The notes below the pieces were generated by a model, which saw only the letters and a list, made by a program, of their open reading frames with translations, was not told the DNA's origin and ran no database searches. This document shows positions 206 through 33,825 of a DNA stretch of 34,480 nucleotides, in pieces; the stretch's first letter is position 1; each line of letters starts with the position of its first letter. Both the position numbers and the translations under genes were made by a program. Location: sequence record SRR22947727_6145, one strand, 5' to 3'.

Positions 206-444
206 ATGCCTGATTCGCTAAAACGTATCGCAGTCATTCTCGAAGGGCGGGTTCAATACGAGCGTAAAGTTCGCGAATGGAACTTGCGAAGCGGCTTTTG
301 ATTGAAACACGACAACCGCTCCGTGAAATCGCGATCCAGTGCGGGTGCGGAGATGCTTCGCGAATGGTGACGATGTTTCGCAGAGAATGCGGAATGACGC
401 CCGGTGAATTTCGGAAAGTAAAAACGAATTCTACGATCCAATAG
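206..444 (+). pseudogene. Internally deleted XylR/AraC-family transcriptional regulator remnant
   Basis: ATG206 gives MPDSLKRIAVILEGRVQYERKV, resembling a XylR-type N-terminus. A different frame (274-444) gives RMELAKRLLIETRQPLREIAIQCGCGDASRMVTMFRRECGMTPGEFRK, the C-terminal AraC HTH pattern. The central ligand-binding domain is absent. Confidence 0.75.
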
Positions 445-477
445 GGTACGTTCGATAAACCAATAGGGTTGGTTCGT
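433..477 (+). repeat. 45-bp element, copy 1 (two units in tandem orientation)
   Basis: ACGATCCAATAGGGTACGTTCG + ATAAACCAATAGGGTTGGTTCGT. By hand alignment it is 39/45 identical to the reverse complement of 33781-33825. Confidence 0.9.
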
Positions 478-573
478 TGTGGAGTGATTTCCGTTTTGAG
501 CCTCGCACAAAAGTCATGCGGAGACGGGAGCGTGCGTCTGGACAGGGAAGATTTCAACGAATACGATGCGAGT

Positions 574-1734
574 ATGAAACGATTTCTGCTTTTCGCGACT
601 CTTCCGATTTTAGCAACGGCCTTTGCAGCGCCGGAGGTGAAAACTATTGAACCGGGCACGAAGGCTCCCGATTTTAATTTACCGGGAGTGGACGGAAAAA
701 ATCACACGCTCGGTGAATATTCGAAGACGGATATTTTGGCGGTTCTATTCACCTGTAATCATTGCCCGTCAGCGCAGGGGGCGGAGTCGCGGGTGAAAAA
801 AATTGTGGCGGATTATGCGGACAAATCATTTCAGCTGGTAGCGATTTCGCCGAACTCTGCGGAAGCGGTTCGAGTGAACGAGCTTGGGTATTCGGTCTAT
901 GGCGATTCGCTGGAGGACATGAAAAAGCACGCAAAGGATCAAGGATTCACCTTTCCGTATCTGTATGATGGCGAGACGCAGTCAGTTTCGAAGGCTTATG
1001 GTGCGTTGGCGACGCCTCATCTTTTCATCTTCGATAAGGGTCGAGTTTTGCAATATGTGGGGCGAATTGACGATTCGAAATTCGGTGATCCGAGCACGAT
1101 TAAAAAACACGATGCACGCGAGGCGATTGATGCGTTGCTCGCAGGAAAGCCGGTTCAGAACCCAATAACCCGGGCTCACGGATGCACTACAAAATGGGCT
1201 TACAAAGGTGACTTGGCGGTAAAGTTTAATGAGGAATTCAAAGCCAAGGCGGTGACGATTAAAAAAATTGATGTCGAGGGCGTTAAGGGATTGGCGAAAA
1301 ACGATACCGAAAAATATCGGTTGGTGAATTTGTGGGCAACGTGGTGTGCGCCATGTGTTGATGAGATGCCGGAGTTAGTAGCGATCGGACGCCAGTTTGA
1401 AACACGTGGATTTGATATGATCACGATCAGCCAGGATGCGCCGGGGCAGATTGATGCGGCGGGAAAAGTCCTGAAGCGCATGCACGCAGCGATGCCGGAT
1501 CGAACGGCTGAGTCGGTAAAGGAAGAAGGACGGACGACGAATAATTATCTTTTCGAAGGGGATAGCGATGCTCTGGCAGAAGCGCTCGATAAAGAATGGC
1601 CTGGACCAATTCCGCACACAGTTCTCATCGCACCTGGTGGAAAAATTGTATGGCGTCACAATGGCCAAATCGATGCGGACGAACTGCGCCGTCAAATCGT
1701 GGCAAAATTAGGCCGCTGGTATTCGCCCAAATAA
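574..1734 (+). CDS. Secreted tandem thioredoxin-fold (redoxin) protein: AhpC/TSA-like domain plus TlpA-like domain
   Basis: Signal peptide MKRFLLFATLPILATAFA from ATG574; APDFNLPGVDGK, TCNHCP and FPYLYD motifs; second domain VNLWATWCAPC. Confidence 0.85.
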   Translation: MKRFLLFATLPILATAFAAPEVKTIEPGTKAPDFNLPGVDGKNHTLGEYSKTDILAVLFTCNHCPSAQGAESRVKKIVADYADKSFQLVAISPNSAEAVRVNELGYSVYGDSLEDMKKHAKDQGFTFPYLYDGETQSVSKAYGALATPHLFIFDKGRVLQYVGRIDDSKFGDPSTIKKHDAREAIDALLAGKPVQNPITRAHGCTTKWAYKGDLAVKFNEEFKAKAVTIKKIDVEGVKGLAKNDTEKYRLVNLWATWCAPCVDEMPELVAIGRQFETRGFDMITISQDAPGQIDAAGKVLKRMHAAMPDRTAESVKEEGRTTNNYLFEGDSDALAEALDKEWPGPIPHTVLIAPGGKIVWRHNGQIDADELRRQIVAKLGRWYSPK

Positions 1735-1741
1735 CAAGTGA

Positions 1742-2422
1742 TCAATCGAGCGGCTTCAGCCGGATTTTGCGAAACGCTGCGACGCAACCTTTGCCGTGGT
1801 CCTGGAGAGCGATAAGCCCTTTGGTCATCGTATATTTTTCTTCTAAATCGGTGAGGATGGAAAACGTCTTGCCGTTGATTTTCTGAGTCACGGTCGAGCC
1901 TTTGGCAATGATCACGAGCTTGTTCCATTCACCGTCTTTGCAGAGTTTTTTGAGGGCTTCACCGTCGCCGATTGATTTCACGGTCTTGGTGCCGTCGGCG
2001 GCGTAAGTGGTGTGCTCACCAGCAAGAGCGAGGTGGGATCGGTGTTTTTCCGGGGCAAGCGAGTGATGCCAGAGTCCCATGACATCGTGCTTTGCGATTT
2101 CGACCTGATATCCCTGAACGTGATACGGTGCGTCTCCCATCATGTGACTTCGAATTTGGACGCCACTGTTTCCTGAGGTGAACTTGAATTCGAGACGAAG
2201 CTCAAAATCAGCAGGTTCGCCGCCTTCCCAAATCAACCAGTTTTTGCCGCCTTTGGGCTGGCCTGTGCAAACGATCGCGCCGTCTTCGACTTTCCACGCA
2301 CTGGGAACGCCATCCCAATCGGTGAGATCTTTTCCGTTAAAAATCGAAACGAATCCGGCTTCGTCATGGGCGAAGGCGAGAGGAGCGAGGGTGAGTGCTG
2401 CGAGAAAAATCCTGAATGTCAT
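1742..2422 (-). CDS. DUF1080 (3-keto-disaccharide hydrolase-like) secreted protein
   Basis: Signal peptide, then FVSIFNGKDLTDW, WKVEDGAI, DFELRLEFK, GNSGVQIRS, GYQVEI, GLIALQDHG and FRKIRLK motifs typical of the family. Confidence 0.9.
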   Translation of the reverse strand: MTFRIFLAALTLAPLAFAHDEAGFVSIFNGKDLTDWDGVPSAWKVEDGAIVCTGQPKGGKNWLIWEGGEPADFELRLEFKFTSGNSGVQIRSHMMGDAPYHVQGYQVEIAKHDVMGLWHHSLAPEKHRSHLALAGEHTTYAADGTKTVKSIGDGEALKKLCKDGEWNKLVIIAKGSTVTQKINGKTFSILTDLEEKYTMTKGLIALQDHGKGCVAAFRKIRLKPLD

Positions 2423-2452
2423 GATAACGATGCTATCACAATTACACGTAAA

Positions 2453-3433
2453 TTATGTCGCAAAAAATGGCTCAAATGTGTCGGGGACAGGTGCCTCAAA
2501 TACCATGGTTTCCCTGGAAATGGGATGGCGCAAACCGAGCTTCCAGGCGTGGAGCATGAGCCGGCCGGTTTTAGTCTGTTGTCGTTTTGGGTTTGCGTAA
2601 ATGAGATCTCCAACGATCGGGCAGCGGAGATTTTCTTTCATGTGGACGCGAATTTGATGGGTGCGACCGGTGAAAATTCGACACTCGACTAGTGCCCACC
2701 GATGAGATGAATCCGAATTGGTAACGGTAAATTCAGTAATAGCCTCTTTACCGCCGGGAGCATTCAAAACAGCCATGCGCTGACGATGAATCGGATGGCG
2801 ACCGATTCGATTTTCGATTCGGCCGGACTCGCTTGGAGGGCAGCCTTCAACGACAGCGAGATAGGTCTTTGAAGTTTCACGCCCAGCAAATTGTGAGACC
2901 AAATCAGCACGGGCGGCTTCGGTTTTTGCGGCGACGAGGCAGCCGCTGGTATCTTTGTCCAACCGATGAACGATCCCGGGACGAACCGCTTCGCCCACAA
3001 TTCGCAGCGAATCGCCGACGTGATGCAGCAATGCATTTACCAGGGTGCCATCGGGATTTCCCGCTGCGGGATGAATAACGAGTCCAATGGGTTTGTTGAT
3101 TACAAGTAGGTGGTCGTCTTCGTAAAGAATGTTGAGCGGGATGTCTTGAGCGATCAGTTCATCTGGCTTTTTGTCGGGCGGCGTCAGAACTATTTTATCG
3201 CCGGGAGATACTCCTAATTTAGCTTTCGTCGCTGTCTTGCCATTGACCTCAACGCAGCCGGTTTTGATAAAATCCTGAATTTTCGACCGGGAAAATTCGA
3301 GTTGCTTTGAACCGCAAAATTCCACCAGTACCCGATCCAAACGATCGCCGGTACTGGTGGAATCATTGATGATGAATTCCTGCCTTGGAGAGGGCAAGCC
3401 TTCGGGAAAAGGCGTTTTGGAGTCGATCGACAT
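2453..3433 (-). CDS. rluD: RluA-family 23S rRNA pseudouridine synthase (RluD)
   Basis: S4-like domain (RLDRVL...SRSKIQDFIK), ILYEDDHLLVINKP, catalytic GIVHRLDKDTSG, TGRTHQIRVH, LMLHAWKL. ATG at 3433 overlaps the upstream gene's TGA (TGATG). Confidence 0.93.
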   Translation of the reverse strand: MSIDSKTPFPEGLPSPRQEFIINDSTSTGDRLDRVLVEFCGSKQLEFSRSKIQDFIKTGCVEVNGKTATKAKLGVSPGDKIVLTPPDKKPDELIAQDIPLNILYEDDHLLVINKPIGLVIHPAAGNPDGTLVNALLHHVGDSLRIVGEAVRPGIVHRLDKDTSGCLVAAKTEAARADLVSQFAGRETSKTYLAVVEGCPPSESGRIENRIGRHPIHRQRMAVLNAPGGKEAITEFTVTNSDSSHRWALVECRIFTGRTHQIRVHMKENLRCPIVGDLIYANPKRQQTKTGRLMLHAWKLGLRHPISRETMVFEAPVPDTFEPFFAT

Positions 3434-4617: not shown

Positions 4618-4639
4618 CAGAGGTAGACTTCCGGTGTTT

Positions 4640-4800
4640 TACCTTATTTTTGAAAAAAATTCAAGTAATTGAGAGTCAATTTTTAGAATTTTTACAATTA
4701 ATCTAGTTTATAGTTAAGTTCAAGCTGTAGCCATAATTTATGTTATACATTGATTTTTAGAGAGTTGTCAGGAATTTCGGGGTATAATAGCTCATTTATG
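4640..4800. promoter_or_regulatory. AT-rich divergent promoter region
   Basis: Lies between the divergent SGNH and sulfatase genes. Positions 4681-4740 have 13/60 G+C by hand count, and TATAAT occurs at 4783-4788. Confidence 0.5.
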
Positions 4801-4849
4801 CATTCTGAAGGTTGGAAGTGACTGGAAATAATTCGATCTGAAGATTTCA

Positions 4850-4894
4850 GCGATCGAATAGGGGCGATTCAATGAGCGAACCCTGTTTGATCGT
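4850..4894. repeat. 45-bp element, copy 2 (head-to-head, degenerate)
   Basis: GCGATCGAATAGGGGCGATTCAATGAGCGAACCCTGTTTGATCGT; same length and core spacing as the other copies. Confidence 0.75.
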
Positions 4895-8554: not shown

Positions 8555-8590
8555 TTCTATTTCGATTGCAATTCTCAGGTTTTTTTCACC

Positions 8591-11830: not shown

Positions 11831-11909
11831 AGGGATATAAAGCGTCTCTGAGCGAGTATGGCAACCCCCGAATACCAGTTCCAAAATGAGACTCTGTTCT
11901 ACCCATTTC

Positions 11910-11931
11910 CTAACCAACAGGGTTGCTTCGA
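11910..11931 (+). repeat. Solo unit of the palindromic repeat
   Basis: CTAACCAACAGGGTTGCTTCGA matches the unit consensus CCAAYAGGGTTGSTTCG. Confidence 0.7.
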
Positions 11932-11940
11932 AAAGGCAAA

Positions 11941-11985
11941 ACGAATCTATAGGGTATGTTCGGCGAACCAACCCTATTGCTTCGT
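11941..11985. repeat. 45-bp element, copy 3 (head-to-head)
   Basis: ACGAATCTATAGGGTATGTTCGGCGAACCAACCCTATTGCTTCGT, immediately downstream of the rbsK stop. Confidence 0.88.
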
Positions 11986-15126: not shown

Positions 15127-15578
15127 GGGGCAGTTTTGAGGGGATATGAATTGGATTCGTCGTGCAGCTTTTGAAGCTCAACGTCGTCAGCCCGACTCAG
15201 TGAATCGAAAAAAACTTTGTTCCAAGTGCAACTGTCAGCGGAAGCCCGGACAAGAGCGCCGTTCTTTGCGGTGATGTTCAAGCTGGAAAAATACAGAGCT
15301 GGTTTTGACGAATCGTAATTCTGAAAATACTGAAGCTCCGAGAACGGACCACTCTCCACTTGTTCGCTGGGCGGATGTGTTTTGATGAAAGCGGAGAGAT
15401 CAGATCCATTCTGAATCTGCCCTGTATCAAACTTTTGCCAAACAGGATGAATCTCATTGGCCATTTTCGACTGCAATTGAAAGTCGGACAACAAGCTGGA
15501 GCCATACAGTACAGCTGCGATCGCGCAGGCGAGAAGCACGCTCGCAATTGAGGTGTGTCTTCTCGTAAGGTTCTTCAT
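15123..15578 (-). CDS. Hypothetical membrane-anchored protein
   Basis: 151-aa ORF with an N-terminal hydrophobic helix; its stop overlaps the next start (ATGA). Confidence 0.7.
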   Translation of the reverse strand: MKNLTRRHTSIASVLLACAIAAVLYGSSLLSDFQLQSKMANEIHPVWQKFDTGQIQNGSDLSAFIKTHPPSEQVESGPFSELQYFQNYDSSKPALYFSSLNITAKNGALVRASADSCTWNKVFFDSLSRADDVELQKLHDESNSYPLKTAP

Positions 15579-17658: not shown

Positions 17659-19550
17659 AAGTCGAAATCGTCGGTTTTAGGTTTCGGTTTCGAACTGCCA
17701 CGAACTTCTGCTCGCGCTTTTGCCTTAGCCAGATTGGGCGGAACAGTGCCGAGGTGCTTCAAAATTTCGTGGGTTTCCGCCGCTTCCCGTTCGGACACAT
17801 TTCCGGTTCGCTGAGCTTCTTCAGCTCCGTAAAGTAGCCATTCGCAGCGTGACGCGAGGGCTTCTTTGGCCTTCAACGTCTCGGGTGGAATTCGGCTTTT
17901 ATCTTTGCCGGCCTGCTCACGCTCAAGTGCGACGAGAGTTTGCTTCACAGCGGTGTAGTATTCTGGCCGAGGTGAATTGGCGGATGGAATCGCCGCAGCG
18001 GCTTGAGTAAACGATTGCGGTTTTCCGTCGTCCGCGGCGTTTTTTCGCGCCGAACGTCTCCCGGCCCAGCGAACCAATCCAATTCCAAGCAACGTGAACA
18101 GCGTGATCGAAGGCACTGCTTGGGCGATCCAAAACATCGGTTGTGAAGTGGCTGCGACCGGCATTTTTCGCCACGTTGGAGGGAGCGTTTTAATCGTCAG
18201 GATATCGTTGAACTGTGCAGCTGGTTTTGCGGTGTCAGGCATGGAGGATGCTCCGTTTTGAGCTCCTGCGTTCGACATCATCGCTGCGGCCGGTTGGTTT
18301 GCCCTCGGATCGGGAGCGACCTGAATCGGAATCGGTTGGGTGGTTCGCGTGCTGTAGGTGGCCGTTGTCGGATCAAAAAAGGACAGTTCAAACGACGGGA
18401 TTTGTGTCATCTCTTTCTGCGGAATCACGATTTGGGAAAACGTCACTTTTCCGGGAGTCAGACCATCTGAATCCTCGGTTGGGTCGAGAATTTTCCGTGC
18501 TTCGTACGTCTTCCAGTCAGCCGGCCCAAGCGACAAAAATTTGGGAGCACCCATCGTTTCAAAATTTCCTGTTCCGGAAACCACGATCTCAAGCGGGATA
18601 GGATCGCCTACCGTGACTTGCTGGGTTGAAGCCATCGCCGTCACCGAAAAATTTCCCACCCCACCAGTAAACGACGCCGGTTTTCCCGGAGGAAGCGGCT
18701 TTACGTTCAATTCGAGCGAATTACTCGTCATCGACTGATTTCGCATCCGCGCGAGCAACATCCGCGGACCAAAGCTCGAACCGGTATCGACGATTCGCGC
18801 TGACATTTCTGCGGGGCCGATTTTGAACTTCCCCGATTTCAGAGCAAACATCGTTGCTGGAACAATCGCCGTATAAAATTGAAGTCCGTCAACTTCCCGC
18901 GCTCCAAATGTGAGTTTACTGGGACGGCGAACGACGATGGCATCATGCTCCAGACTCGCTTTGCCGATTTCCTGAATCTGGGCCTTCGAAAACGCGGTCA
19001 TCGTGAATGGGATCATCTGATTTTCGTAAATCTCTTTCACCTCGGTTTCCAAAACCGCAAAATAAGGCCGGGTCGAATCCATCGCAGATTTGGGTGTTTT
19101 GCGCTCAAAAACCGAAAGCGCGTGTTTTTCGGTTTTTGCCGGCAATCCATCGACTTCGATTTCGATTTCGGGAATGATGAAGTCGCCCGCCTTTTCGGCA
19201 ATCACCGTGAAAATGAAATCAAATCGAGTGGCGCCGTTGATATAACTTTGGTTTCTCGAAGTCTGCTGAATAATCAAACCTGGAACGCTGAGCGATTGGG
19301 GAACCGGTTTGGTTGGCACGCCATTGTTAATTGAAATCGTATATTGATTCAGCTCGCCGACCCCAAATTTAGCCCGATCGACGGAACTGGATACCGATGG
19401 GCCAGTTGCTTGAGCGATTGCAATCTCACTGGAAAAAAGCATCGCGAAAAACAAGACGGCGAGAAAAAACGATCCAACAGGGTTGGTTCGTCGATCATAC
19501 CCTATCCGATCGTGGAAAGGTGCTGGGTCGGAGTTTCTCAAAGCGATCAC
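17655..19550 (-). CDS. batD: BatD-family protein
   Basis: Repeated Ig-like BatD modules (AEKAGDFIIPEIEIEVDG; LELNVKPLP; FTGGVGNFSV; VTVGDPIPL; IPSFELSFFDP) and a C-terminal TM helix. The start is uncertain (GTG 19550). Confidence 0.82.
   Translation of the reverse strand: MIALRNSDPAPFHDRIGYDRRTNPVGSFFLAVLFFAMLFSSEIAIAQATGPSVSSSVDRAKFGVGELNQYTISINNGVPTKPVPQSLSVPGLIIQQTSRNQSYINGATRFDFIFTVIAEKAGDFIIPEIEIEVDGLPAKTEKHALSVFERKTPKSAMDSTRPYFAVLETEVKEIYENQMIPFTMTAFSKAQIQEIGKASLEHDAIVVRRPSKLTFGAREVDGLQFYTAIVPATMFALKSGKFKIGPAEMSARIVDTGSSFGPRMLLARMRNQSMTSNSLELNVKPLPPGKPASFTGGVGNFSVTAMASTQQVTVGDPIPLEIVVSGTGNFETMGAPKFLSLGPADWKTYEARKILDPTEDSDGLTPGKVTFSQIVIPQKEMTQIPSFELSFFDPTTATYSTRTTQPIPIQVAPDPRANQPAAAMMSNAGAQNGASSMPDTAKPAAQFNDILTIKTLPPTWRKMPVAATSQPMFWIAQAVPSITLFTLLGIGLVRWAGRRSARKNAADDGKPQSFTQAAAAIPSANSPRPEYYTAVKQTLVALEREQAGKDKSRIPPETLKAKEALASRCEWLLYGAEEAQRTGNVSEREAAETHEILKHLGTVPPNLAKAKARAEVRGSSKPKPKTDDFDF
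19469..19513. repeat. 45-bp element, copy 4 (head-to-head), within the 5' coding region of batD
   Basis: ACGATCCAACAGGGTTGGTTCGTCGATCATACCCTATCCGATCGT. Confidence 0.88.
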
Positions 19551-21264: not shown

Positions 21265-22136
21265 GTGAACTTTTCAAAATCCGCATCCTTTCTTTCGCTT
21301 GCCGCATGGTCTGTTTTTGCGTTCGGATCGATGTCGGTGGCTGCTCCTGCCTTGAAAAAAGCAAGCGTAGCCAGTATTAAGCCACAGGATCTCGTCGAAT
21401 ACGCGACGATGGAACCCAGAGTCCAAAAGCTCGTTCGTGAAGCGCTGGCATTGACCACAAAGGGGCTGGGTTATCGATACGGCTCGAATTCCCCGAAGAA
21501 TAAAGGAATGGATTGCTCTGGGACCGTCCAGCACACCTTGAATGCAGCAGGCCTCTCGCAAATCCTGCGATCGTCCTATACGCGATGTATCATTGGACCA
21601 AAGACGCAGGGACGTTGAACAAAGTTAGCGGCGTGCATTCTCACGATCACAGCGGTCTTTCAAAGTTGAAGCCGGGTGACTTGCTATTTTGGGAAGGAAC
21701 TTATGCGACGGCAGGTCGGGTGCCGCCGATTTCTCACGTGATGATTTATCTCAGAACGCTAAAAGAGGACGGTAAAAAAGTGATGTATGGCGCGAGCAGT
21801 GGTCGTCGTTATCGGGGAAAGAAAATTCACGGGGCCAGCGTGTTCGACTTCAGTTTGCCGAAGGTGGATTCGAAAGCGAAATTTGTCGGTTACAGTCCGA
21901 TTCCGGGATTCAAAAGTGTCAAACCTGCGCCGAAAAAGACCGTGGCTTTCAGAAAAAAGACGGAATCTGAGGTGACGAAACCAGTCGCGCCGAAAAAAAC
22001 CGCAACGGCCGTCGAAACTAAACCAGTGGCTGAAGAACAGACACCGCCACCCACAACTGTGCCAGTGGCTACTGCTCGGAAAACGGTTCTGCCAAAACTG
22101 TTTCCAAAACTTCGCGCAGCCCTGTCGAAGAAGTGA
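21265..22136 (+). pseudogene. Frameshifted NlpC/P60 cell-wall peptidase
   Basis: Frame A has a signal peptide, YRYGS and the catalytic GMDCSG. Frame B continues MYHWTK, LKPGDLLFW and SHVMIY. The break is at TATACGCGATG (about 21580-21587). Confidence 0.85.
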
Positions 22137-24558
22137 GGTCTTCAAATCGGAAGCCGGGTTCATTTTCGATTCCCCGATAAAGCGCTCGCAGACGAAGCGC
22201 GACATTCTGGGCAAGTTCATTACCACGGGTTTCGATAAGCAGCTCCCTCAATTCTACCGGCCCGCTGAACTCTCTGCCGCCATGAAGTTGGCCGGTGGCA
22301 TTGACTGGTTTTCCTGCTTCCAGTGTCCGCCAGCGACCGGTCGCATCGAAATTCTCCAGTCCAAACCCGATCGGATCGATCTTTTCATGACAGCGAGCGC
22401 ATTCGGTTTTGGTTGAATGCTCCGCGAGTTCTTCACGCAGCGTTTTTCCCCGCGCCTCGCCCGCGTCTCCCGGTAGCTCGCCGGCGTCAGGAAGGGGATC
22501 CCCCACTGGCAACCCTAGCAAATTTTCCCAGACCCATTTTCCACGCCGAACTGGGTTGGTTCGTGTCGGCGAGGACGTTGCCACCAACACGGCACCTTTT
22601 CCGAGAAGGCCAAATCGATTCGAGTTTTCCAGATCGGTTGATTCATAATAGGCCGCTAATTTCTCATCAGCGAACGACTCGTTGGCGGTTAATAAATCGG
22701 AAACCGGCCGGTTTTCGCGGACGAGTTTTGCGATGAAATTATGAACTTCAGCACGCATCGAATCAGCAATGTCGGGCGTGAAATCAGGCCAGAGATTTCG
22801 GTCAGGCGCAATTTCTTCGAGTTCGAGCCACTCATCTGAAAAGCGACGAAAAAACGCGTCCGAACGAGGATCCGTCAGCATCCGCGCGATTTGAGATTTC
22901 AGCACATCCGGAATTCTGAGATCTGCTTCAGCCAGTTCCAAATCAGATTTTGAGAGCCACAAAAAATACGAGAGGTCGGACGCCTCTTGCGAATTTTTCT
23001 GTTCATCTCCGCGAAATAGAAAATCGGATGACATCAGAATCGCGGCGAGCGCTAGCTTCACCGAACGCGCCCGGTCTTCCTCGCGCCGCTGCGCTTCGAG
23101 AACGACGCGGACATACGGTGCAAGCTCAGCTTCGGAAACGGGGTGCCTAAATGCCTGCTCGGCAAATTCACGAACCAGCGTGGTCGGATCAACTGGCTCC
23201 CGCATTCGCTGAATCAAATTCCAGTCCTGCGGCGCGATATTCGATTCGGGTAAAACCGGACCTGAAACGGCAAATTTTTCGACATAAAGTTTTCCCTGAT
23301 ACGCCATCCAATCCGTCCATTCAACGTGTGCAACCCGATCCAGAATTTCCTGATTTCTCTGTAGCCGATCCTGATTTTTTGCCAACCACGCCGCTGCTAA
23401 TTCCGTCTTTGAAAACTCCGATTCAAGAGCCAGTTTCGTTAAAATCCGATCCCAATCAGCCTCATGTTCGTGATAATATTTACGGCGCTGATCAATTTCC
23501 CGGGAATCACCATCGACTCCGAACGCGGTAAGGTATTCGATGCTTTCCTGCATCCCGAGCGCTTTTAAATTCAACGATTCACGCAATTTGCGGGCTGCTG
23601 GAGTTTCGTCCGGCGGGGCAGGGAAGTTGGCTGAATTTTTGCGAGACTGTTCATCAATTTTTCCAACAAAATCCGGTGGCAATGGAATATGGGGAACGAG
23701 GTTTTTGCTACCGATTTTTACCGAGTGAAACCCGCGCCGAACAAAAGTGGACACTGATTTTTTGATCGGATTTTTGATGTCGTTTTTTGCAAATTTGATT
23801 TCCGCGACGACTTCGCCTGAGACAAAAAACTGAGCAACACACGGCTGACCAATCGTAGCTGCATTGGCGGAAAATTCATAAAATCCATCGACCGGAAATT
23901 CGACCTCTACTTCCAGAAAATGAGTCGGTTGCACCACCATCATTCCATCGAGATGCGCCTTCACACCGGGAGCGCTCGTGGTCATTTTTTGAGCCGAAAA
24001 CGAGCTCGTTTTACGATTATCGAGGGCGATCGCAAACGCGCCATCGAGCGCCCGTTCAGCCGAAGCAAACAGCAATTCCATCTGCGACGGCGTGATCGCC
24101 AACGCGGCCCGGTCATTCGAAAAACCGCTCGTTCCCTGACCGTCGATTGGTAAATTTTCACCCGCCCGCAGATCCACGCCGAGAAGATCACGCAGCGTGT
24201 TGGCGTATTCTTCACGCGTTAGTCGTCGCACCCTTGGAGATTCCAGCTCAGGGAACTCGATTTGAGTAAAATCGTGACGAAGTTTGGTAAGCATCGCATC
24301 GCGTTCTGCTCGTGTCGGATATGGTGCTTTTGTCGGCATTTCCTCCGAATCAATTTGGTCAATCAGCGTGAGCCAATCATGCCGATTTGCTGCGGAAAAG
24401 TTGCGCAGGTCCGTTTCACCTTCGAGGTTTTGCGGATCATCACCGTGGCATTTGAGGCAGTAAAAAGACATGAAATCATCCGCGAAAACAGCTCTGTTGC
24501 CGCTTCCCCAAATCACCGCGCCGCAAAACACGTGAAAAATGATTTTCCCAAATCGCAT
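22069..24558 (-). CDS. Planctomycete cytochrome c protein with DUF1587/1592/1588/1595/1585-type domains
   Basis: Signal peptide, CLKCH...EMP, RRLTREEYANTLRDLLG, FAEQAFRHPV, LSYFLW, RTNPVRRGKWV, CARCH-EKIDPIGFGLENFDATGRWR. Confidence 0.88.
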   Translation of the reverse strand: MRFGKIIFHVFCGAVIWGSGNRAVFADDFMSFYCLKCHGDDPQNLEGETDLRNFSAANRHDWLTLIDQIDSEEMPTKAPYPTRAERDAMLTKLRHDFTQIEFPELESPRVRRLTREEYANTLRDLLGVDLRAGENLPIDGQGTSGFSNDRAALAITPSQMELLFASAERALDGAFAIALDNRKTSSFSAQKMTTSAPGVKAHLDGMMVVQPTHFLEVEVEFPVDGFYEFSANAATIGQPCVAQFFVSGEVVAEIKFAKNDIKNPIKKSVSTFVRRGFHSVKIGSKNLVPHIPLPPDFVGKIDEQSRKNSANFPAPPDETPAARKLRESLNLKALGMQESIEYLTAFGVDGDSREIDQRRKYYHEHEADWDRILTKLALESEFSKTELAAAWLAKNQDRLQRNQEILDRVAHVEWTDWMAYQGKLYVEKFAVSGPVLPESNIAPQDWNLIQRMREPVDPTTLVREFAEQAFRHPVSEAELAPYVRVVLEAQRREEDRARSVKLALAAILMSSDFLFRGDEQKNSQEASDLSYFLWLSKSDLELAEADLRIPDVLKSQIARMLTDPRSDAFFRRFSDEWLELEEIAPDRNLWPDFTPDIADSMRAEVHNFIAKLVRENRPVSDLLTANESFADEKLAAYYESTDLENSNRFGLLGKGAVLVATSSPTRTNPVRRGKWVWENLLGLPVGDPLPDAGELPGDAGEARGKTLREELAEHSTKTECARCHEKIDPIGFGLENFDATGRWRTLEAGKPVNATGQLHGGREFSGPVELRELLIETRGNELAQNVALRLRALYRGIENEPGFRFEDLTSSTGLREVLETVLAEPFSEQ

Positions 24559-24599: not shown

Positions 24600-24644
24600 A
24601 CGATCCAATAGGGTTGCTTCATCGAACAGACCCTATTGGATCGT
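24600..24644. repeat. 45-bp element, copy 5 (head-to-head, most symmetric copy)
   Basis: Perfect 16-bp inverted repeat CACGATCCAATAGGGT (24599-24614) / ACCCTATTGGATCGTG (24630-24645). Confidence 0.92.
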
Positions 24645-24755: not shown

Positions 24756-25748
24756 ATGCCTGATTCATCATGGAAAAGTGCGTTTCTGGGATCTCTTGTC
24801 GCCGATGCTTTTGCGATGCCGGTTCACTGGTATTACGATCGAAATGCGTTGGTCCGAGACTATGGGGTGGTGCAGGAATTTGTAGCTCCGAAAAATCCCC
24901 ACGCTGATTCGATTCTGTGGCGTTCGGAATACACGCCGGTGAATGAAAAAGGCGATATTCTGCGCGAACAGGCGGCTTTCTGGGGACAGCGGGGGATTCA
25001 CTATCACCAGTTTCTCGAAGCGGGCGAAAACACCGTAAACTACCGACTCGCGGCTGAATTGGTGCGCTGGTCGGACGGGGGTGGCGGCTACGAGGCGGAT
25101 GCCTGGCTGGAACGTTACATCGAGTTAATGCTGACTCCAGGTTGGCATCGGGACACATATTTGGAGGAATATCACCGCGGTTTTTTCATGAAATATGCGT
25201 CGGGAAAGGCTCCCCGGAAATGCGCGATTCGTGATGAACACATCGGAGGCTTGGCTCAGGTCGCAGCCGTTTGTCTGGCGGCGGAAAAGCAGGATTTGGC
25301 GGCGCTTCGAGCGACGGTGAGAGAACATGTGGGGCTCACGCACGAACACAAAAACGTTCAACTAGCTGCGGACACTCTGGTTCGACTCTTGTGGAAAATC
25401 GGGGAGGACGTTCCGCTCCGAGATGCGATTCAAAGCGAGGCAGGTGATTGGTTTTCAGCGAAAAAAGCGGAACGCTGGATTGATTTGCCGGATTCTCAAA
25501 TCATCGGACAGAAATACAGTCCGGCGTGTTATATCGATCAATCCATGCCGGCATCGATTTATCTGGCATGGAAATATCACGATGATTTTTTCCGTGGGAT
25601 TCAGGCCAATGCGATGGTCGGTGGCGATAACTGTCACCGTGGAGCTGTCGTTGGAGCTCTCCTAGGAGCGGCGAACGGAGTGGATGACAAATGGGTTTCG
25701 GAGCTTCACGAACCAGCCCTATTGGATCGGGTTAGAGCGATTTCTTGA
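24756..25748 (+). CDS. ADP-ribosylglycohydrolase-family protein
   Basis: AFLGSLVADAFAMPVHWYY, HVGLTH, ANAMVGGDNCHRGAVVGALLGAANG. The likely start is ATG24756. Confidence 0.85.
   Translation: MPDSSWKSAFLGSLVADAFAMPVHWYYDRNALVRDYGVVQEFVAPKNPHADSILWRSEYTPVNEKGDILREQAAFWGQRGIHYHQFLEAGENTVNYRLAAELVRWSDGGGGYEADAWLERYIELMLTPGWHRDTYLEEYHRGFFMKYASGKAPRKCAIRDEHIGGLAQVAAVCLAAEKQDLAALRATVREHVGLTHEHKNVQLAADTLVRLLWKIGEDVPLRDAIQSEAGDWFSAKKAERWIDLPDSQIIGQKYSPACYIDQSMPASIYLAWKYHDDFFRGIQANAMVGGDNCHRGAVVGALLGAANGVDDKWVSELHEPALLDRVRAIS
25708..25729 (-). repeat. Solo unit of the palindromic repeat inside the 3' end of the ADP-ribosylglycohydrolase CDS
   Basis: ACGAACCAGCCCTATTGGATCG is the reverse complement of CGATCCAATAGGGCTGGTTCGT, one mismatch from consensus. 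Confidence 0.85.
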
Positions 25749-29149: not shown

Positions 29150-29219
29150 GTGGGCAGGATAGTGAATTTGCGGAAAACGCGCAATTCCGAAACCTGACGG
29201 ATTTGTGTGTTGGTCGAAT

Positions 29220-29711: not shown

Positions 29712-29749
29712 TCTATGAGAGATTACGCTGGTTTGTGCCAGCCGGTCAC

Positions 29750-31147
29750 TCACGAAATGATGTCTTTCAAAACATGCCCATGAACATCGGTGAGGCGAAA
29801 ATCCCGTCCGGCGTAGTTGTAAGTCAGCTTGGTGTGATCAAGCCCCATCAGATGTAAAATCGTGGCGTGCCAGTCGTGGGTGTGGACCTTGTTTTCGATC
29901 GCTTGATAACCGTATTCGTCGGTCGACCCGTAGCGCTGACCACCGTTCACTCCGCCGCCAGCCATCCATGAGGTGTAGCCTTTGTTGTTGTGATCACGCC
30001 CGTTTCCATTCTGCCCGTGTGGGGTGCGGCCAAATTCTCCTGACCAAACGATCAATGTATCTTTCAGCATGTCGCGCTGTTTCAAATCGGCGAGTAAGCC
30101 GGCAATCGGCTTGTCGATCGCGCCGCAGTTTTGCTCCATTGCATTGCTCAGATTTCGGTGGTGATCCCAGTTGCCTTGATTGACCTCGATGAAGCGAACG
30201 CCGGCCTCGGCCATGCGTCGTGCGGTTAAACACTGAGTTCCGAAACCCTGCGTCGCCCGATCATTCAGTCCATACATTTCGCGAATGTTCTCCGGCTCGG
30301 AATTGAAATCGAGAACGGTCGGAACCTCATCCTGCATACGAAAAGCGAGTTCGAAGGATTCAATCACGCCTTCGATTTCAGGATGAACCCGGTCGCGCTT
30401 TAGCTTTTCGATGTTGAGAGATTTGATGTAATCAAGCTGAACGCGCTGCAATTCGGGCGAGAGTTTTGAGTTTTTAATATTCGAAATCGTCGGAGTCGGC
30501 GCAGCTCCACCGCCACGTAGAAGCGCGCCGCGCTGAGCTTGTCCAACCGGCGTTCCCTGGTAAACAGCCGGCAAAAAAGCAGAGCCGTAATTTTGCGCGC
30601 CGCCATTTCCATTCGGGGGAGCGAGATTGATGAAGCCGGGAAGGCTATCGTTTTCAGTTCCCAAACCGTAAAGCGTCCATGCCCCGAGTGAAGGGCGCAC
30701 AAATTGGAAATTACCCGTGTGCATCTGCACAAATGCCTGGGGATGATTTGGCAAATCGGTGTGCATCGAATTGATGAGGCACAGGTCATCAGCGTGTTCG
30801 GCAAGGTTTGGGAACAGTGACGAAATTGGCAAACCGCTCTCGCCGTGCTGTTTAAATTCCCACGGAGAACCGAGCAATTTAGCAAAGCCTTTCGCGTTTT
30901 TTCCCGTGTCAGCGGTCAGTTGGGGCTTGTAGTCGAACGTATCGACGTGCGATGGACCGCCTTGCATGCAGAGAAAAATCACACGCTTGGCCTTTGGCGT
31001 GAAATGCGGAGCTTTCGCGGTGAGCGGGCTTTTCTGCTGCTCAGCCTGCATCGTGCTGAGCGCGGAGAATGCCATGTAACCGAAACCGGAAGCGGTGGCT
31101 TGGAGAGCCGTTCGGCGTGAGGGGAGAAACGGTAGATCTGAGTTCAT
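29750..31147 (-). CDS. DUF1501 domain protein
   Basis: Tat-like SRRTALQ, AKRVIFLCMQGGPSHVDTFDYKP, ARRMAEAGVRFIE, WDHH, GEFGRTP, GRDHN, RDFRLTDVHG. Confidence 0.93.
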   Translation of the reverse strand: MNSDLPFLPSRRTALQATASGFGYMAFSALSTMQAEQQKSPLTAKAPHFTPKAKRVIFLCMQGGPSHVDTFDYKPQLTADTGKNAKGFAKLLGSPWEFKQHGESGLPISSLFPNLAEHADDLCLINSMHTDLPNHPQAFVQMHTGNFQFVRPSLGAWTLYGLGTENDSLPGFINLAPPNGNGGAQNYGSAFLPAVYQGTPVGQAQRGALLRGGGAAPTPTISNIKNSKLSPELQRVQLDYIKSLNIEKLKRDRVHPEIEGVIESFELAFRMQDEVPTVLDFNSEPENIREMYGLNDRATQGFGTQCLTARRMAEAGVRFIEVNQGNWDHHRNLSNAMEQNCGAIDKPIAGLLADLKQRDMLKDTLIVWSGEFGRTPHGQNGNGRDHNNKGYTSWMAGGGVNGGQRYGSTDEYGYQAIENKVHTHDWHATILHLMGLDHTKLTYNYAGRDFRLTDVHGHVLKDIIS

Positions 31148-31189
31148 CGTTGTCGGAATAGGGGTTAAAAAGTGAGTTGGGATGCGGTT

Positions 31190-33715
31190 TCAGTTCACGT
31201 AGCGAAATTCAGCGCTCGACATCAGGCTTTGGCAAAAGGTGTGAAGCGCGAGTTTTGTGGCTTCGGCTTCGTTCAGGCCGGATTCCTTTGCGGTGCTGAT
31301 AAATCGTTCGAAATACGCTTTCGTTTTGCGACCTTCTTCTTCGGTCGGCGGCCTGGAATAGCAGAGGTGAAAAGCGGTGTAGCCGAGCTTTCCTCCGCGA
31401 AGATTCAGCTCGTTCGTGAGCAGGTTGCTCATGGCTTCTGCGTTCGTTTGCAGAAAATTCGAGTTCATCAAAAACAATGCCTGAGAAGGAACGGTCGTTG
31501 TTTCTCGAGCTCCAAGAACGAGGCTTGGATCTGCGAAATCAAAGAGCTGAAGCGAGTCTGGAAGCATGTCGCGGATAACCGGCACGTAGACTGAACGATT
31601 GCTGAAATTCGAGTTGGTCAGGTAATCTTCGACCGAACTGATGGCACCTGCCCGACCTACGAAACCGTTTCCTTGCGCCGCGACGATTGAACCTTGGGGC
31701 CGCTCCAAATCGATTTGGCCGCTCACTGCGAGTGTCGCATCGCGAAAGGATTCGGCGTCAATTCTACGTTTGTTAGTGCGCCAGAGTTGCTTGTTATCGG
31801 GGTCGGTGAGGAACTTTGCTTCGTCATAATCGGAGTTCATTCGATACGTCCGACTCGTGACAATTTCTTTGATCAGAGATTTCACCGACCATTCCATTTC
31901 GATGAATCGAACCGCGAGCTGATCAAGCAATTCAGGATGGGTTGGTTTTTCACCGGTCGTTCCGAAATTATCGACACTGGTGACCAGTCCCTGACCGAAC
32001 AGCCAATGCCACGTCCGATTCACAAACACGCGCGACGTCATCGGATTTTCGGGAGAAGTCATCCAGCGAGCCATTTGCAACCGACCACTCTGGGTCTCAG
32101 GGATCGGCCGCTCGTCATTGGTTTGAATTACCTGAACGAAGCCGCGTGGGACGGTTTCCTTGGTCGCGTTCTCAATTTCTCCACGAACTAAAATCGGAGA
32201 ATCGTAGAGCGTATCGCCGTCCTGCATTGCCATGGCGAGGGGCTTGCGATTTCCGTCGTTGTCGAAGGCTTCCAAATTGCTTTTCACAATCCCGCTCTGA
32301 TTGATGTTGTTCAATGACTGCAGGCGCAGTCGCTGGGCGGCGTCGGTATCGCCAGAGGCACGCGCTTCGCGGACTTTTTCCTCGGTCTCTCTCAGCTGTT
32401 TTGCGATCATGTCGTTGCGAGCCTGTAGATCGACGAGTTCACCAAGTGGTAGTTTTTCACCAGCTCTGGGAACGTTACCGGGAAGCTCTATGAGAGAGGT
32501 TGAGTTTCGATTCTGCGCAGTCCGGGGGGAGCCAAAATGAGTGTGGCTGCTGAGAAAAATTCCTGCCATGGCGTAGTAGTCTGACATTGGAATCGGATCG
32601 AACTTATGATCGTGGCAGCGAGCGCAGGCCACGGTTGTCGCAAGAACCGCTTTTGTGGCCGTGTCGATTTGCTCATCAATCATATCAAACCTGAACTGCC
32701 TCGGGTTCCGTTCATTGAGTCCTTTGGTGCCGATGGTTAGAAAACCGGTGGCGACAAGTTGTTCTGCTTGCTGTTCGTCAGTTTCGAATTGAAGGAGGTC
32801 ACCTGCAACTTGTTCGACCACAAATTGATCAAAGGGTTTGTCATCATTGAAGGCATCGATCACGTAATCCCGATAGCGCCAGGCGTGAGGAAAGGTCGCA
32901 TTGGATTCTCGGCCGCTTGATTCTGCGTATCGGGCAACGTCGAGCCAGTGCCGTCCCCAACGTTCGCCGAAGCGTTCGGAGGCAAGCAGTTCGTCGACCG
33001 CGTTGGCAGTGGCTTTGTCGGGATCCAAATCCCACGCCTTCACAAAGGCTTCCGTGGCGGCGATTGATGGCGGAAGCCCGATCAGATCGTAGTAGACGCG
33101 GCGAAGAAAGGTTCGCGCATCGGTGTCACTATTCGGCGCGAGCTCGTTTTTTTCTAAACTGGCGAGCACAAATTGATCAATCTCGTTTTTTGCCCAGTCG
33201 GCTTTTTTTGTTTGAGGAACTTCGTGTTTCGTAGGCACTTGATAAGCCCAGTGTTCCTTGCGCCCTTTTTCGATGTCGATCGTTGAACTGTATTTCTCCG
33301 CCGGTTTGTCCGCGTCAGCGCTGCGCCGTGGATCGGGTGCACCCATGTCGATCCATTTTTTGAAATCAGCCAGGACGTGATTCGGTAGTTTTGTTTTGGG
33401 CGGCATTTCGAGGGAGCTGTCCTCGTAGGTCATGGCGATATAGATGAGACTTTCTTCCGCGTTTCCGGGAGTGAGCGCTGATCCGGAATCACCACCCCGA
33501 ATCGAACCGTCGCGGGTATCGAGCAACAAACCGCCTTTGATTTTGTCACCTTCTTTGGCGTGGCACTTGTAGCAATTTTTTACCAAGACGGGACGAATTT
33601 TTGACTCAAAGAAATTGAGTTGCTCCTCAGAAAATTCGTCTGACTGGGTCATGGACATTTCCTGCGCGTTTGCAGAAACTGTGGCGGCGAGAAGGACAGC
33701 AAAAAATCGGTTCAT
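31190..33715 (-). CDS. Planctomycete cytochrome c + DUF1549 + DUF1553 protein
   Basis: Signal peptide from ATG33715, FFESKIRPVL..NCYKCH, HWAYQ, FGERWGRHWLDVARYAES, CARCHDHKFDPI, NFGTTGEKPTHPELLD, PSQALFLMNS. Confidence 0.93.
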   Translation of the reverse strand: MNRFFAVLLAATVSANAQEMSMTQSDEFSEEQLNFFESKIRPVLVKNCYKCHAKEGDKIKGGLLLDTRDGSIRGGDSGSALTPGNAEESLIYIAMTYEDSSLEMPPKTKLPNHVLADFKKWIDMGAPDPRRSADADKPAEKYSSTIDIEKGRKEHWAYQVPTKHEVPQTKKADWAKNEIDQFVLASLEKNELAPNSDTDARTFLRRVYYDLIGLPPSIAATEAFVKAWDLDPDKATANAVDELLASERFGERWGRHWLDVARYAESSGRESNATFPHAWRYRDYVIDAFNDDKPFDQFVVEQVAGDLLQFETDEQQAEQLVATGFLTIGTKGLNERNPRQFRFDMIDEQIDTATKAVLATTVACARCHDHKFDPIPMSDYYAMAGIFLSSHTHFGSPRTAQNRNSTSLIELPGNVPRAGEKLPLGELVDLQARNDMIAKQLRETEEKVREARASGDTDAAQRLRLQSLNNINQSGIVKSNLEAFDNDGNRKPLAMAMQDGDTLYDSPILVRGEIENATKETVPRGFVQVIQTNDERPIPETQSGRLQMARWMTSPENPMTSRVFVNRTWHWLFGQGLVTSVDNFGTTGEKPTHPELLDQLAVRFIEMEWSVKSLIKEIVTSRTYRMNSDYDEAKFLTDPDNKQLWRTNKRRIDAESFRDATLAVSGQIDLERPQGSIVAAQGNGFVGRAGAISSVEDYLTNSNFSNRSVYVPVIRDMLPDSLQLFDFADPSLVLGARETTTVPSQALFLMNSNFLQTNAEAMSNLLTNELNLRGGKLGYTAFHLCYSRPPTEEEGRKTKAYFERFISTAKESGLNEAEATKLALHTFCQSLMSSAEFRYVN

Positions 33716-33780
33716 GGAATTTTCAGGTTCGAGACATTCAACCGACTGCACACAAAAAAGTTTCTGAGAAAACCGTTTTT

Positions 33781-33825
33781 ACGAACCCACCCTGTTGATT
33801 CATTGAACGTACCCTATTGAATCGT
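33781..33825 (-). repeat. 45-bp element, copy 6 (two units in tandem, minus strand)
   Basis: Reverse complement ACGATTCAATAGGGTACGTTCAATGAATCAACAGGGTGGGTTCGT aligns without gaps to 433-477. Confidence 0.9.

Follow-up and report, generated by a model that had tools for sequence, protein, structure and literature searches.

A 45-bp double-palindromic element recurs throughout the 5.97-Mb genome of a marine Verrucomicrobiales bacterium (approximately 740 elements, 1,200–1,900 units), and its properties are closer to those of a selected recognition site than to those of a jumping REP element. We tentatively interpret it, with a rough probability of 0.45, as a selected sequence-specific recognition site for a putative cellular factor with a chromosome-wide role. 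The earlier note, made from a window of 34,480 nucleotides (the whole stretch of DNA that was analysed), had suggested either a REP/REPIN-like family or a protein-binding site. The abundance and lineage specificity that it proposed stand and its REPIN/RAYT mechanism does not; a recognition site fits better because of the position-specific conservation, the even spacing and the length-neutral copies within genes.

Each 45-bp element consists of two 23-bp units with one base in common, and the unit is spelled ACGA-w-CCAA-y-AGGG-T-nn-GTTCG-t. In the window, 7 sites match the consensus unit when up to 3 mismatches are allowed, as compared to 0 in 100 shuffles. All eight stretches described in the earlier note, six 45-bp doublets and two solo units, read as described, and the genome-wide unit profile finds exactly the same 14 units and no others in the window. 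Only the ends of the solo units had to be moved by one base (11909-11931 and 25708-25730 in the profile). The copies in the window are as follows.

433..477, no strand assigned: direct doublet (++), with the ATG of an AhpC/TSA-thioredoxin gene ~80 bp downstream; units at E 4.5e-06 and 2.9e-04
4850..4894, no strand assigned: inverted doublet (+-) of 45 bp between divergent GDSL-like and sulfatase genes; weak unit 4850-4872 at E 0.96, second unit at E 2.5e-04
11909..11985, no strand assigned: three-unit element beginning 4 bp past the stop codon of a PfkB kinase gene; weak solo unit (11909-11931, E 0.12), 9-bp spacer AAAGGCAAA and inverted doublet (11941-11985), of which unit 11941-11963 is weak (E 2.7)
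19469..19513, no strand assigned: inverted doublet of 45 bp; lies upstream of a BatD-like gene, at 122 bp downstream from an FGGY kinase gene
24600..24644, no strand assigned: inverted doublet of 45 bp between divergent genes; most palindromic of the window copies
25708..25730, minus strand: solo unit at the junction of convergent ADP-ribosylglycohydrolase and DUF423 genes; E 1.6e-04
33781..33825, no strand assigned: direct doublet (--) of 45 bp between divergent genes, with a PSCyt/PSD gene 30 bp downstream

The profile search of the whole genome returned 1,223 unit matches at E<=0.01, which were grouped into 738 elements, and 665 matches had at most 4 mismatches to the consensus unit, in agreement with the hundreds of copies that had been predicted. 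The centres of 779 neighbouring unit pairs are exactly 22 bp apart (+- 519, ++ 136, -- 114, -+ 10) and those of another 150 exactly 32 bp apart; distances of 21, 23 or 31 bp are found in a handful of cases. Thus, the identical length without indels noted in the window holds genome-wide. Direct doublets, which fold weakly, make up a quarter of all doublets. There are also 99-bp quadruplets with a 9-bp spacer conserved across the family, and the spacer AAAGGCAAA of the element at 11909..11985 agrees with this spacer consensus. The core is mostly spelled TAGGG in this genome (G000) and CAGGG in G001 and G002. No description of a 45-bp dyad family was found in the literature searched and the window has no Rfam match, consistent with the remark that the family was not a recognised one.

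The elements, one per ~7–10 kb of chromosome, are spaced far more evenly than expected by chance in two species. The coefficient of variation (CV) of the gaps in G000 was 0.655, as compared to 0.92–0.94 (sd 0.03–0.04) for random intergenic draws, and gaps below 2 kb accounted for 4.4% as compared to approximately 21.5% (sd 0.012–0.018). For G001, the gap CV was 0.50 versus 0.92, and all 1,000 draws gave a higher value. Copies inside genes had a median distance of 4.9 kb to the nearest neighbour, versus 2.0 kb for positions drawn at random from coding sequence (p 5e-7), the intergenic and in-gene classes being based on crude gene calls made for this analysis.

Comparison of orthologous loci showed retention instead of the REPIN-like turnover that filled and empty sites might have revealed. 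Among 91 syntenic intergenic regions of G000 and G001, 7 were occupied in both genomes, one was occupied in G000 alone and two in G001 alone, and both of the latter hold degraded copies in G000. For 26 of 38 anchored elements of G001, which is a congeneric species, a G000 element was located at most 250 bp from the expected place. In 35 orthologous unit pairs the flanks are mostly only ~20–50% identical, which corresponds to near-random divergence, whereas about 13 of the 23 unit positions (including 3, 4, 8, 9, 11–15, 20 and 21) are 89–100% identical and the variable positions 40–63%, figures that are inflated by ascertainment since the same profile had to detect both partners. Selection is required in any case, because the conserved positions were kept while the flanks reached near-random divergence.

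Individual window copies illustrate this pattern. The orthologue of the 433..477 element in G002 has identical arms and an inverted second core, and the one in G001 is a decayed relic. Doublets in G001 upstream of the sulfatase orthologue (L012) and directly downstream of the PfkB orthologue (L018) are the counterparts of 4850..4894 and 11909..11985, and the G001 element at the place orthologous to 19469..19513 (L006) has one core oppositely oriented. The doublet orthologous to 33781..33825 has the opposite orientation in G001, and in G002 a doublet lies ~50 bp away. The 5-bp core alone is occasionally inverted between orthologues, which suggests that single units at times form hairpins while the DNA is replicated. 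No presence/absence differences were seen at four element loci in four metagenome populations, and no indel was observed at 24600..24644 in the four metagenome runs compared; a 1-bp deletion at 25716, within the solo unit at 25708..25730, is present in part of run X14.

Conservation acts on the sequence and not on the structure. The 309 inverted doublets are all different from each other (309/309 unique), and no compensatory changes or stem covariation were detected among them. At variable positions the fraction of paired bases was at or below that of shuffles, both in the small hairpins and in the long hairpin, with z-scores of -3.7, -4.8 and -6.9 at pairs 16/30, 17/29 and 22/24. Predicted folding energies of the six window copies ranged from -3.1 kcal/mol (z -1.2) to -18.5 kcal/mol (z -7.4), the latter for 24600..24644. 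The edges are sharp, with conservation ending within ~4 flanking bases. A weak T-run before the element and an A-run after it form an inverted and not a direct pair, confirming the absence of a target-site duplication; the lack of a 5' GTAG on the elements and of a transposase in the window was likewise confirmed.

Of the 738 elements, 56 are located deep in coding sequence, in frame, and 92% lie outside. A favoured reading frame was used by 16 of 24 in-gene inverted doublets, and the in-gene copies occupy poorly conserved protein segments. Six of eight checked copies swap resident codons with little change in length relative to homologues without the motif, with the net differences listed below.

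CysS: +2 aa relative to homologues without the motif
Hsp70: 0 relative to G008, +2 relative to solved DnaK
PBP1A: -3 and +3
FdhD-MobA: -2
Squalene/phytoene synthase: -4 to -5
PSD1-domain protein: 0 relative to 8 paralogues; the copy overlies a conserved TYRQ...ERDPEN stretch

The other two checked copies sit in loops ~7–20 aa longer than in paralogues, which counts against a selected site. We infer that new copies mostly form on the spot, through substitution or a short templated patch, and not by cut-or-copy transposition.

An unlikely alternative, although far from negligible, is that an enzyme of the genus ancestor multiplied a short non-autonomous palindromic element, a REP doublet, and that this enzyme has since been lost or was never recognised, leaving immobile copies that are partly kept through an acquired host use. 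The unit skeleton occurs 853, 884 and 396 times in the genus's three genomes, as compared to 0–16 times in 131 other genomes of the family. This confirms the lineage specificity, and the ~50- to 100-fold excess over sister genera looks like an amplification burst and counts against a selected site; it would also fit decay outside the genus, since one in-gene copy is common to another genus (G003). Element-bearing intergenic regions are longer than element-free ones by about one element length (convergent median 127.5 bp, or 59 bp after subtraction of the element, versus 40 bp), which looks like added DNA and not in-place conversion, again at odds with a selected site. Like the REP/BIME/REPIN elements that are moved by RAYT (TnpA-REP) in Proteobacteria, the units are short imperfect palindromes with sharp boundaries in hundreds of copies, mostly extragenic, lineage-specific and predominantly in inverted pairs. 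Many REPs sit just past stop codons, as do many of these elements.

Unlike these REPs, the 45-bp family has no GTAG, cognate RAYT, identical copies or stem covariation, and it is retained at orthologous places, evenly spaced and length-neutral in genes. The REPIN/RAYT mechanism was thus unsupported. The search for a RAYT gene beside the units, proposed in the earlier note, yielded only a broken Y1_Tnp fragment as the sole match in this genome, with no unit nearby. No unit-flanked RAYT gene was found here or among the inspected Y1 genes of sister genomes; those inspected in G001 adjoin other repeats, either GTAG-containing hairpin repeats or long terminal inverted repeats. No sign of a mobiliser or of recent mobility was found. 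Neither the even spacing nor the placement of in-gene copies in the gaps is expected from random insertion. The unchanged gene length in six of eight cases also counts against this alternative; the copy over the conserved protein motif could not have been produced by insertion, and the persistence of conserved positions beyond flank divergence needs selection regardless.

Transposase-less REP dimers are on record: passages of Di Nocera et al. 2013 (PMC3733652) describe CGTC-type REPs with 8–9 bp stems, 4–5 nt loops, head-to-head dimers and no dedicated transposase. The present family resembles them, as described there, in its 9-bp stem, 5-nt loop, mostly dimeric arrangement, occasional location within genes and lack of a dedicated transposase. 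It differs in having neither the unpaired CGTC tag nor the CCA tail, and in its first stem positions, which are A-C here and complementary A/T residues there; those passages list no CGTC repeats for the PVC superphylum.

A motif preferred by the DNA-uptake or recombination machinery, which would accumulate in place by mutation and biased transfer between cells as proposed for the USS of Pasteurellaceae and the DUS of Neisseria, is rather improbable. There are parallels: according to Findlay and Redfield 2009 (PMC2817400), uptake sequences are biased in reading frame and sit at poorly conserved residues, as do our length-neutral in-gene copies, and according to Bakkali 2007 (PMC1939737) they originate by point mutation and not by insertion. 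Like the 45-bp family, the motifs are also highly over-represented, differ in spelling between related species, are conserved at orthologous places and lack a transposase. The 45-bp family is approximately four times longer than the known uptake cores of 9–12 bp, has a strict dyad with exact internal spacing as well as 99-bp quadruplets with a conserved spacer, is mostly extragenic (92% outside deep coding sequence) and is much more evenly spaced. Rewriting ~30 of 45 bases within Hsp70 by single steps also seems a lot. A ComEC-family gene is present, but such genes are widespread, and natural transformation is not known to us from this lineage. HIP1 (GCGATCGC) of cyanobacteria, described by Xu et al. 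2018 (PMC5861425) and in later papers as hyper-abundant, evolutionarily conserved, quasi-periodic and long unexplained in function, is likewise an iterated palindrome. It differs in being an 8-bp word that occurs more than once per gene, compared to a composite site once per 7–10 kb, and in being recognised by methyltransferases.

Placement relative to genes bears on the two remaining alternatives. The occupied intergenic regions comprise 118 of 678 between convergent genes, 104 of 677 between divergent genes and 311 of 2,248 between genes in tandem; the elements are specific to neither promoters nor terminators. In tandem regions 159 of 311 elements (51%) start 0–20 bp past the upstream stop codon, and the median distance in convergent regions is 12 bp, which could also be explained by a role at RNA 3' ends. 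A transcribed 3' hairpin, acting as a protein-dependent terminator or as an exonuclease block that stabilises the upstream message, would agree with the strong folding possible in inverted doublets and with the modest strand bias of direct doublets relative to transcription (36 vs 17). We consider it very improbable given the flanking runs (on both strands the T-run precedes and the A-run follows the element, the reverse of the order in an intrinsic terminator), the occupancy of divergent regions at the same rate as elsewhere, the 56 copies within genes, the absence of covariation and of an Rfam match, and the weakly folding direct doublets. The sites of a single transcription-factor regulon, or a promoter element, are already disfavoured to the point of being hardly credible despite the dyad symmetry and the position of 5 of 7 window loci ~30–80 bp upstream of a gene start, since the occupancy of promoterless convergent regions (17%) is no lower than that of divergent regions (15%), the ~740 sites adjoin genes of unrelated function and copies also occur within genes.

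In the case of a selected recognition site, judged from the sequence, a protein would read the element, probably a two-fold symmetric DNA-binding protein with one unit per subunit, and a set of sites every ~7–10 kb along the chromosome would be held by purifying selection. The function would then depend on spacing and may lie in chromosome organisation, for example as a topoisomerase, nucleoid-protein or condensin-type site.

The six 45-bp doublets and two solo units reported by the earlier note were found in the window at the same coordinates, and their sequences read as it had stated. Each unit is a 23-bp imperfect palindrome with 9-bp arms and a 5-nt core, a doublet consists of two units sharing one base, and a solo unit or a cluster of units is here called an element.

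Elements of the family in the window
433-477, doublet
4850-4894, doublet
about 11909-11931, solo unit
11941-11985, doublet
19469-19513, doublet
24600-24644, doublet
about 25708-25730, solo unit
33781-33825, doublet

With up to three mismatches, the consensus 23-mer matched the window seven times, as compared to none in 100 shuffled sequences. A genome-trained profile recovered exactly the 14 units counted previously and no additional ones, three of them weakly in the profile search (E values of 0.12, 0.96 and 2.7). The window corresponds to bases 45152-79631 on the minus strand of contig C205 in genome assembly G000 (5,967,073 bases, 229 contigs, 51% G+C, 95.6% complete). The expectation of hundreds of copies was borne out here by 738 elements in the profile scan and by 665 occurrences of the consensus with up to four mismatches. 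The number of hits to the nhmmer unit profile rose from 575 at E<=1e-4 to 1,223 at E<=0.01 and 1,959 at E<=10; units up to 60 bp apart were joined into elements after removal of double-strand duplicates, with at least one unit at E<=0.01. The elements comprised 446 doublets, 114 solo units, 78 triplets, 99 quadruplets and 1 quintuplet, and the 45-bp family is thereby confirmed as real and abundant. It is apparently undescribed so far; no published description of the motif was found in the literature covered on planctomycete REPs, CGTC repeats, uptake sequences and HIP1, and the accessible part of the RepRanger article (PMC12306157) makes no mention of this lineage.

The arrangement of the units is strict. 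The spacing between adjacent unit centres was exactly 22 bp for 779 pairs (519 +-, 136 ++, 114 -- and 10 -+) and exactly 32 bp for another 150, all remaining distances being rare. The AGGG core is directed away from the outer end of the doublet with a preference of approximately 83% per unit, and the core orientations of the two units are almost independent of one another. The doublet logo reads tTTt-ACGAaCCAAcAGGGTt.GTTCgtCGAAC.aACCCTgTTGGTTCGT-aaAa, with no conservation beyond, and quadruplets are two doublets linked by the conserved spacer AAAaGgC.TTT. The ACGA and TCGT unit ends are paired outer stem bases, flanked by T-rich and A-rich sequence. The logo does not support a 10.5-bp helical periodicity, as its conserved blocks recur about every 5 bp.

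Scans for the unit skeleton CGA-N3-AA-N-AGGGT-N3-TTC gave 853, 884 and 396 hits in the three members of the genus (G000 and its congeners G001 and G002), as compared to 0-16 per genome for 131 others in the family, of which G085, G019 and G061 have 10-16 relic units; reversed-pattern controls gave 0-3. The corresponding doublet skeleton counts were 240, 212 and 67 in the genus and 0-3 elsewhere in the family. The few copies outside the genus are complete doublets or longer arrays adjoining unrelated genes, and no common neighbour gene emerged from a Pfam search of 35 neighbouring ORFs. An 11-mer test, which recovers the 45-bp motif in G001 and G002, revealed no recurrent 11-mer family in the small samples (21-28 kb each) from three family members of other genera (G003, G004 and G008).

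The host lineage is a marine or aquatic member of Verrucomicrobiota, because the motif-rich records in the species-genome collection are Verrucomicrobiales MAGs among the matches listed. These relatives rule out a planctomycete origin, which was first suggested by the PSCyt, PSD, DUF1501 and sulfatase genes. Besides an ECF sigma factor and housekeeping enzymes, the window encodes sulfatases and PSCyt/PSD/DUF1501 proteins. Its planctomycete-named domains (PSCyt1/2, PSD1/3/4/5, DUF1501) and three sulfatases are located at 22069-24558, 29750-33751 and elsewhere; their names alone point to the wrong phylum. DNA nearly identical to the window was found in metagenome runs from seven studies, and two metatranscriptome runs cover small shares of it (0.18 and 0.08).

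The elements are evenly spaced. Across the 47 G000 contigs that reach 40 kb or more (480 elements), the inter-element distances had a CV of 0.655, and 4.4% of them were shorter than 2 kb. Random draws of equal numbers of intergenic regions at five length thresholds gave CVs of 0.92-0.94 (sd 0.03-0.04) and approximately 21.5% (sd 0.012-0.018) of distances below 2 kb, and uniform random placement gave a CV of 0.98. In G001, 40 elements in 400 kb had a CV of 0.50 as compared to 0.92, a value as low being reached in 0 of 1,000 draws; apart from one pair at 585 bp, the shortest distance was 4.2 kb.

Elements are also retained at orthologous positions, as analyzed for G000 and 400 kb of G001 (best-hit protein identity, median 74%). 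Among 91 syntenic intergenic regions, an element was present in both genomes in seven, in G000 only in one and in G001 only in two, and alignment of the latter two revealed degraded element copies in G000. A G000 element was located within 250 bp of the expected place for 26 of the 38 anchored G001 elements. No clean empty intergenic site was found between the species, the flanks being too diverged for alignment. In 35 same-orientation orthologous unit pairs, the ungapped flanks were mostly about 20-50% identical, whereas positions 3, 4, 8, 9, 11-15, 20 and 21 were 89-100% identical and the family-variable positions 40-63%, values that are inflated by the requirement that both partners be detected. 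Most sites are nonetheless kept while the flanks are near-random, which requires purifying selection or continual re-homogenisation. Orthologous partners have idiosyncratic bases in common, and as judged from the alignments this argues for inheritance over re-insertion.

Core orientation differs in 13 of the 48 orthologous unit pairs. This is most clearly seen in the doublet upstream of AhpC (window 433-477 and its G002 counterpart, L009:565-612), where the arms are identical and the 5-bp core of the second unit is exactly reverse-complemented. Such a flip is the signature expected of loop inversion in a hairpin, and the units therefore probably fold back at times, although the stem is unselected. 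No positive stem covariation was observed in the small hairpins, nor in the long hairpin of 45 nt; in both, complementary pairs at variable positions did not exceed those in shuffles; inner-pair complementarity was below shuffles (z -3.7, -4.8 and -6.9). Predicted folding energies of the six window doublets ranged from -3.1 to -18.5 kcal/mol. At another locus (contig C165 of G000, about 90,750-90,900), a unit core is split by approximately 75 bp of unrelated GC-rich sequence not found in the G001 orthologue, and a different repeat may have produced a small insertion here.

The 56 copies deep within ORFs are in frame, and their hosts are long, well-scoring ORFs. They often encode the peptide T-[NI]-QQG-x-F-DE-PTLLDR-[EK], and 16 of the 24 inverted doublets within genes are in the favoured reading frame. 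Pfam analysis of 12 hosts identified Hsp70, a class A penicillin-binding protein, cysteinyl-tRNA synthetase, squalene/phytoene synthase, a MobA-FdhD fusion, a BlaR1-type peptidase and PSCyt/PSD proteins. The nearest element was at a median distance of 4.9 kb from these copies, as compared to 2.0 kb from coding positions chosen at random (p 5e-7). We measured the length change of eight host proteins relative to motif-free homologues.

Net length change of host proteins relative to motif-free homologues
CysS: +2 aa
Hsp70: 0 vs another genus; +2 vs solved DnaK
PBP1A: -3 and +3
FdhD fusion: -2
Squalene/phytoene synthase: -4 to -5
PSD1-domain protein: 0 vs eight paralogues; motif over the conserved TYRQ...ERDPEN stretch
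Two further proteins: motif in loops that exceed those of paralogues by about 7-20 aa

In six of the eight, the change was at most 5 aa, which suggests that the motif mostly replaces resident codons and does not contribute 45 added bases. The squalene synthase alignment to solved structures stopped short of the element. Hsp70 carries the motif in G000 (++) and G002 (+-) but not in G001, which is nearer to G000 by protein identity; the sequences would fit either loss in G001 or parallel gain. A decayed doublet in the FdhD-MobA linker of G003 (L095) is in the same place as the copies of G000, G001 and G002, and at least some copies are therefore older than the genus split.

We assign a probability of roughly 45% to the reading that the element is a selected recognition site for a putative reader, with a spacing-dependent, chromosome-wide role. 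The earlier note had proposed either a REP/REPIN-like family or a genome-wide protein-binding site. The second option agrees better with the even spacing and the retention, the reader itself being putative, whereas the REPIN/RAYT mechanism fails for want of both tag and RAYT. A more specific version, which we hold only tentatively, is that of a chromosomal 'ruler'. A long two-fold symmetric site would be set and kept every ~7-10 kb, overwriting tolerant stretches of essential genes that lack nearby intergenic DNA, and would be read by a putative protein to organise, partition or mark the chromosome.

The positions of the elements relative to genes bear on the alternatives.

Elements by position in G000, based on our own crude ORF calling (4,417 ORFs over 86.5% of the genome)
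Tandem intergenic regions: 311 elements in 2,248 regions
Convergent intergenic regions: 118 elements in 678 regions
Divergent intergenic regions: 104 elements in 677 regions
First 150 nt of a longest ORF (true start probably further downstream): 87 elements
Last 60 nt of an ORF: 16 elements
Deep within ORFs: 56 elements
Contig edges: 46 elements

Element-bearing intergenic regions exceed element-free ones by roughly one element length, and this extra length looks like added DNA. The median length of convergent regions was 127.5 bp with an element and 40 bp without, or 59 bp once the element was subtracted. Copies within genes mostly keep length, while copies between genes appear to add DNA. 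A fossil REP-like element, although unlikely in our view, would account for the added length and for the genus-level excess, which looks like an amplification burst. It is at odds with the position-wise conservation, the even spacing and the mostly unchanged gene length.

As in REP systems, the family is a short imperfect palindrome in many copies, mainly extragenic (56 of 738 elements deep within genes). Unlike REPs, it lacks a 5' GTAG across the genome as in the window; GTAG is absent from the logos of 316 units and 309 doublets, which open with ACGA. The suggested mobilisation by a RAYT enzyme found no counterpart, since no cognate Y1_Tnp gene flanked by units was present in G000 or at the inspected sister-genome loci. 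The sole PF01797 (Y1_Tnp) match in G000 is fragmentary, having an in-frame TAA and an ORF truncated to 101 aa; the 3.3-kb locus around it contains no unit. Six Y1_Tnp matches were obtained in G001 and a single weak one in G002. This unit-free fragment, together with the other repeats at the inspected sister-genome loci, rules out a RAYT association of the family. At four G001 loci (L023, L025, L026 and L027), locus-specific GC-rich hairpin repeats containing GTAG are located about 300 bp upstream of the Y1_Tnp match; they resemble classical REP-RAYT units of a type that has no relation to the 45-bp family. At a fifth (L028:1360-1960), a truncated Y1_Tnp gene lies between ~70-bp inverted repeats beside a small nucleotidyltransferase-like ORF; on either side is one copy of a small membrane-protein gene that has been duplicated. 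A doublet precedes each copy, and the arrangement suggests a segmental duplication in which the element was copied too. A REPtron-like unit, with a gene regularly enclosed by close element pairs, was ruled out, as the 45 pairs less than 2.5 kb apart enclose unrelated housekeeping genes, and between the only close pair in G001 no convincing ORF was found.

All 309 inverted doublets in G000 are unique. No indel was observed at the three doublets within window 14481-34480 in contigs from four metagenome runs of four studies, substitutions being present; in the same comparison, part of one run carried a 1-bp deletion in a solo unit. Strain indels away from the elements include a 9-bp deletion at window position 15317 (run X7) and a 13-bp insertion behind 34028 (run X12). 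Taken with the absence of covariation and the retention of the anchored elements, the uniqueness and the lack of doublet indels mean that no signs of REPIN-like replication as a unit were observed.

MITEs carry the terminal inverted repeats of a parent IS, generate a target-site duplication and are usually longer than 100 bp, whereas the present element has only 45 bp and is without direct flanking repeats. No IS sharing the element ends was found at the inspected Y1_Tnp loci or between close element pairs. The Rfam search of the whole window gave no match at gathering thresholds. In the accessible part of Di Nocera et al. 2013 (PMC3733652), REPs fall into GTAG- and CGTC-tagged superfamilies, with GTAG repeats reported from the PVC group and CGTC repeats described as having 8-9 bp stems, 4-5 nt loops and dimers, without a transposase. 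As far as that account extends, the 45-bp family has the stem and loop size, the dimer dominance (446 doublets as compared to 114 solo units) and the missing transposase in common with the CGTC-tagged repeats, but not their unpaired CGTC tag and short CCA-like tail.

An uptake-sequence-like drive is by analogy conceivable and, in our estimate, improbable. Uptake sequences are short single motifs of ~9-12 bp, whereas the present element is a dyad of two 23-bp units with exact spacing. According to the accessible parts of two studies, they arise in place by point mutation (Bakkali 2007, PMC1939737) and, with a bias in reading frame, lie where residues are poorly conserved (Findlay and Redfield 2009, PMC2817400). 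Apparent in-place substitution, a frame bias within genes and poorly conserved segments are likewise found in the 45-bp family. A ComEC-family gene is present, which does not discriminate for this reading.

An RNA 3'-end element is still less probable. In tandem regions, 159 of the 311 elements begin 0-20 bp past the upstream stop codon, and the median distance to the nearest gene end in convergent regions is 12 bp, a preference that could reflect such a function. Intrinsic terminators consist of a GC-rich hairpin followed by a T-run at the 3' ends of transcription units. Here the polarity is reversed, the T-run preceding and the A-run following the element on both strands, and 104 elements are located in divergent regions. 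Intergenic occupancy is approximately 15% for every region type which, together with this polarity, rules out a canonical terminator. The same uniform occupancy rules out a promoter element or operator, and operator sites of one regulon are the least credible explanation.

Dispersed repeats in bacteria are usually placed in one of two classes, selfish mobile DNA (REP/REPIN, MITE) and short driven words (USS, HIP1). The 45-bp family fits neither class, being long and composite like a REP doublet, yet vertically inherited, evenly spaced and length-neutral in genes. It is also a test case for the spread of long recognition sites without a transposase. The motif is usable as bait in pull-down or DAP-seq experiments and as a genus marker in metagenomes. 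If a reader protein exists, the element would open chromosome organisation to direct experiment in a marine lineage that has been little studied.
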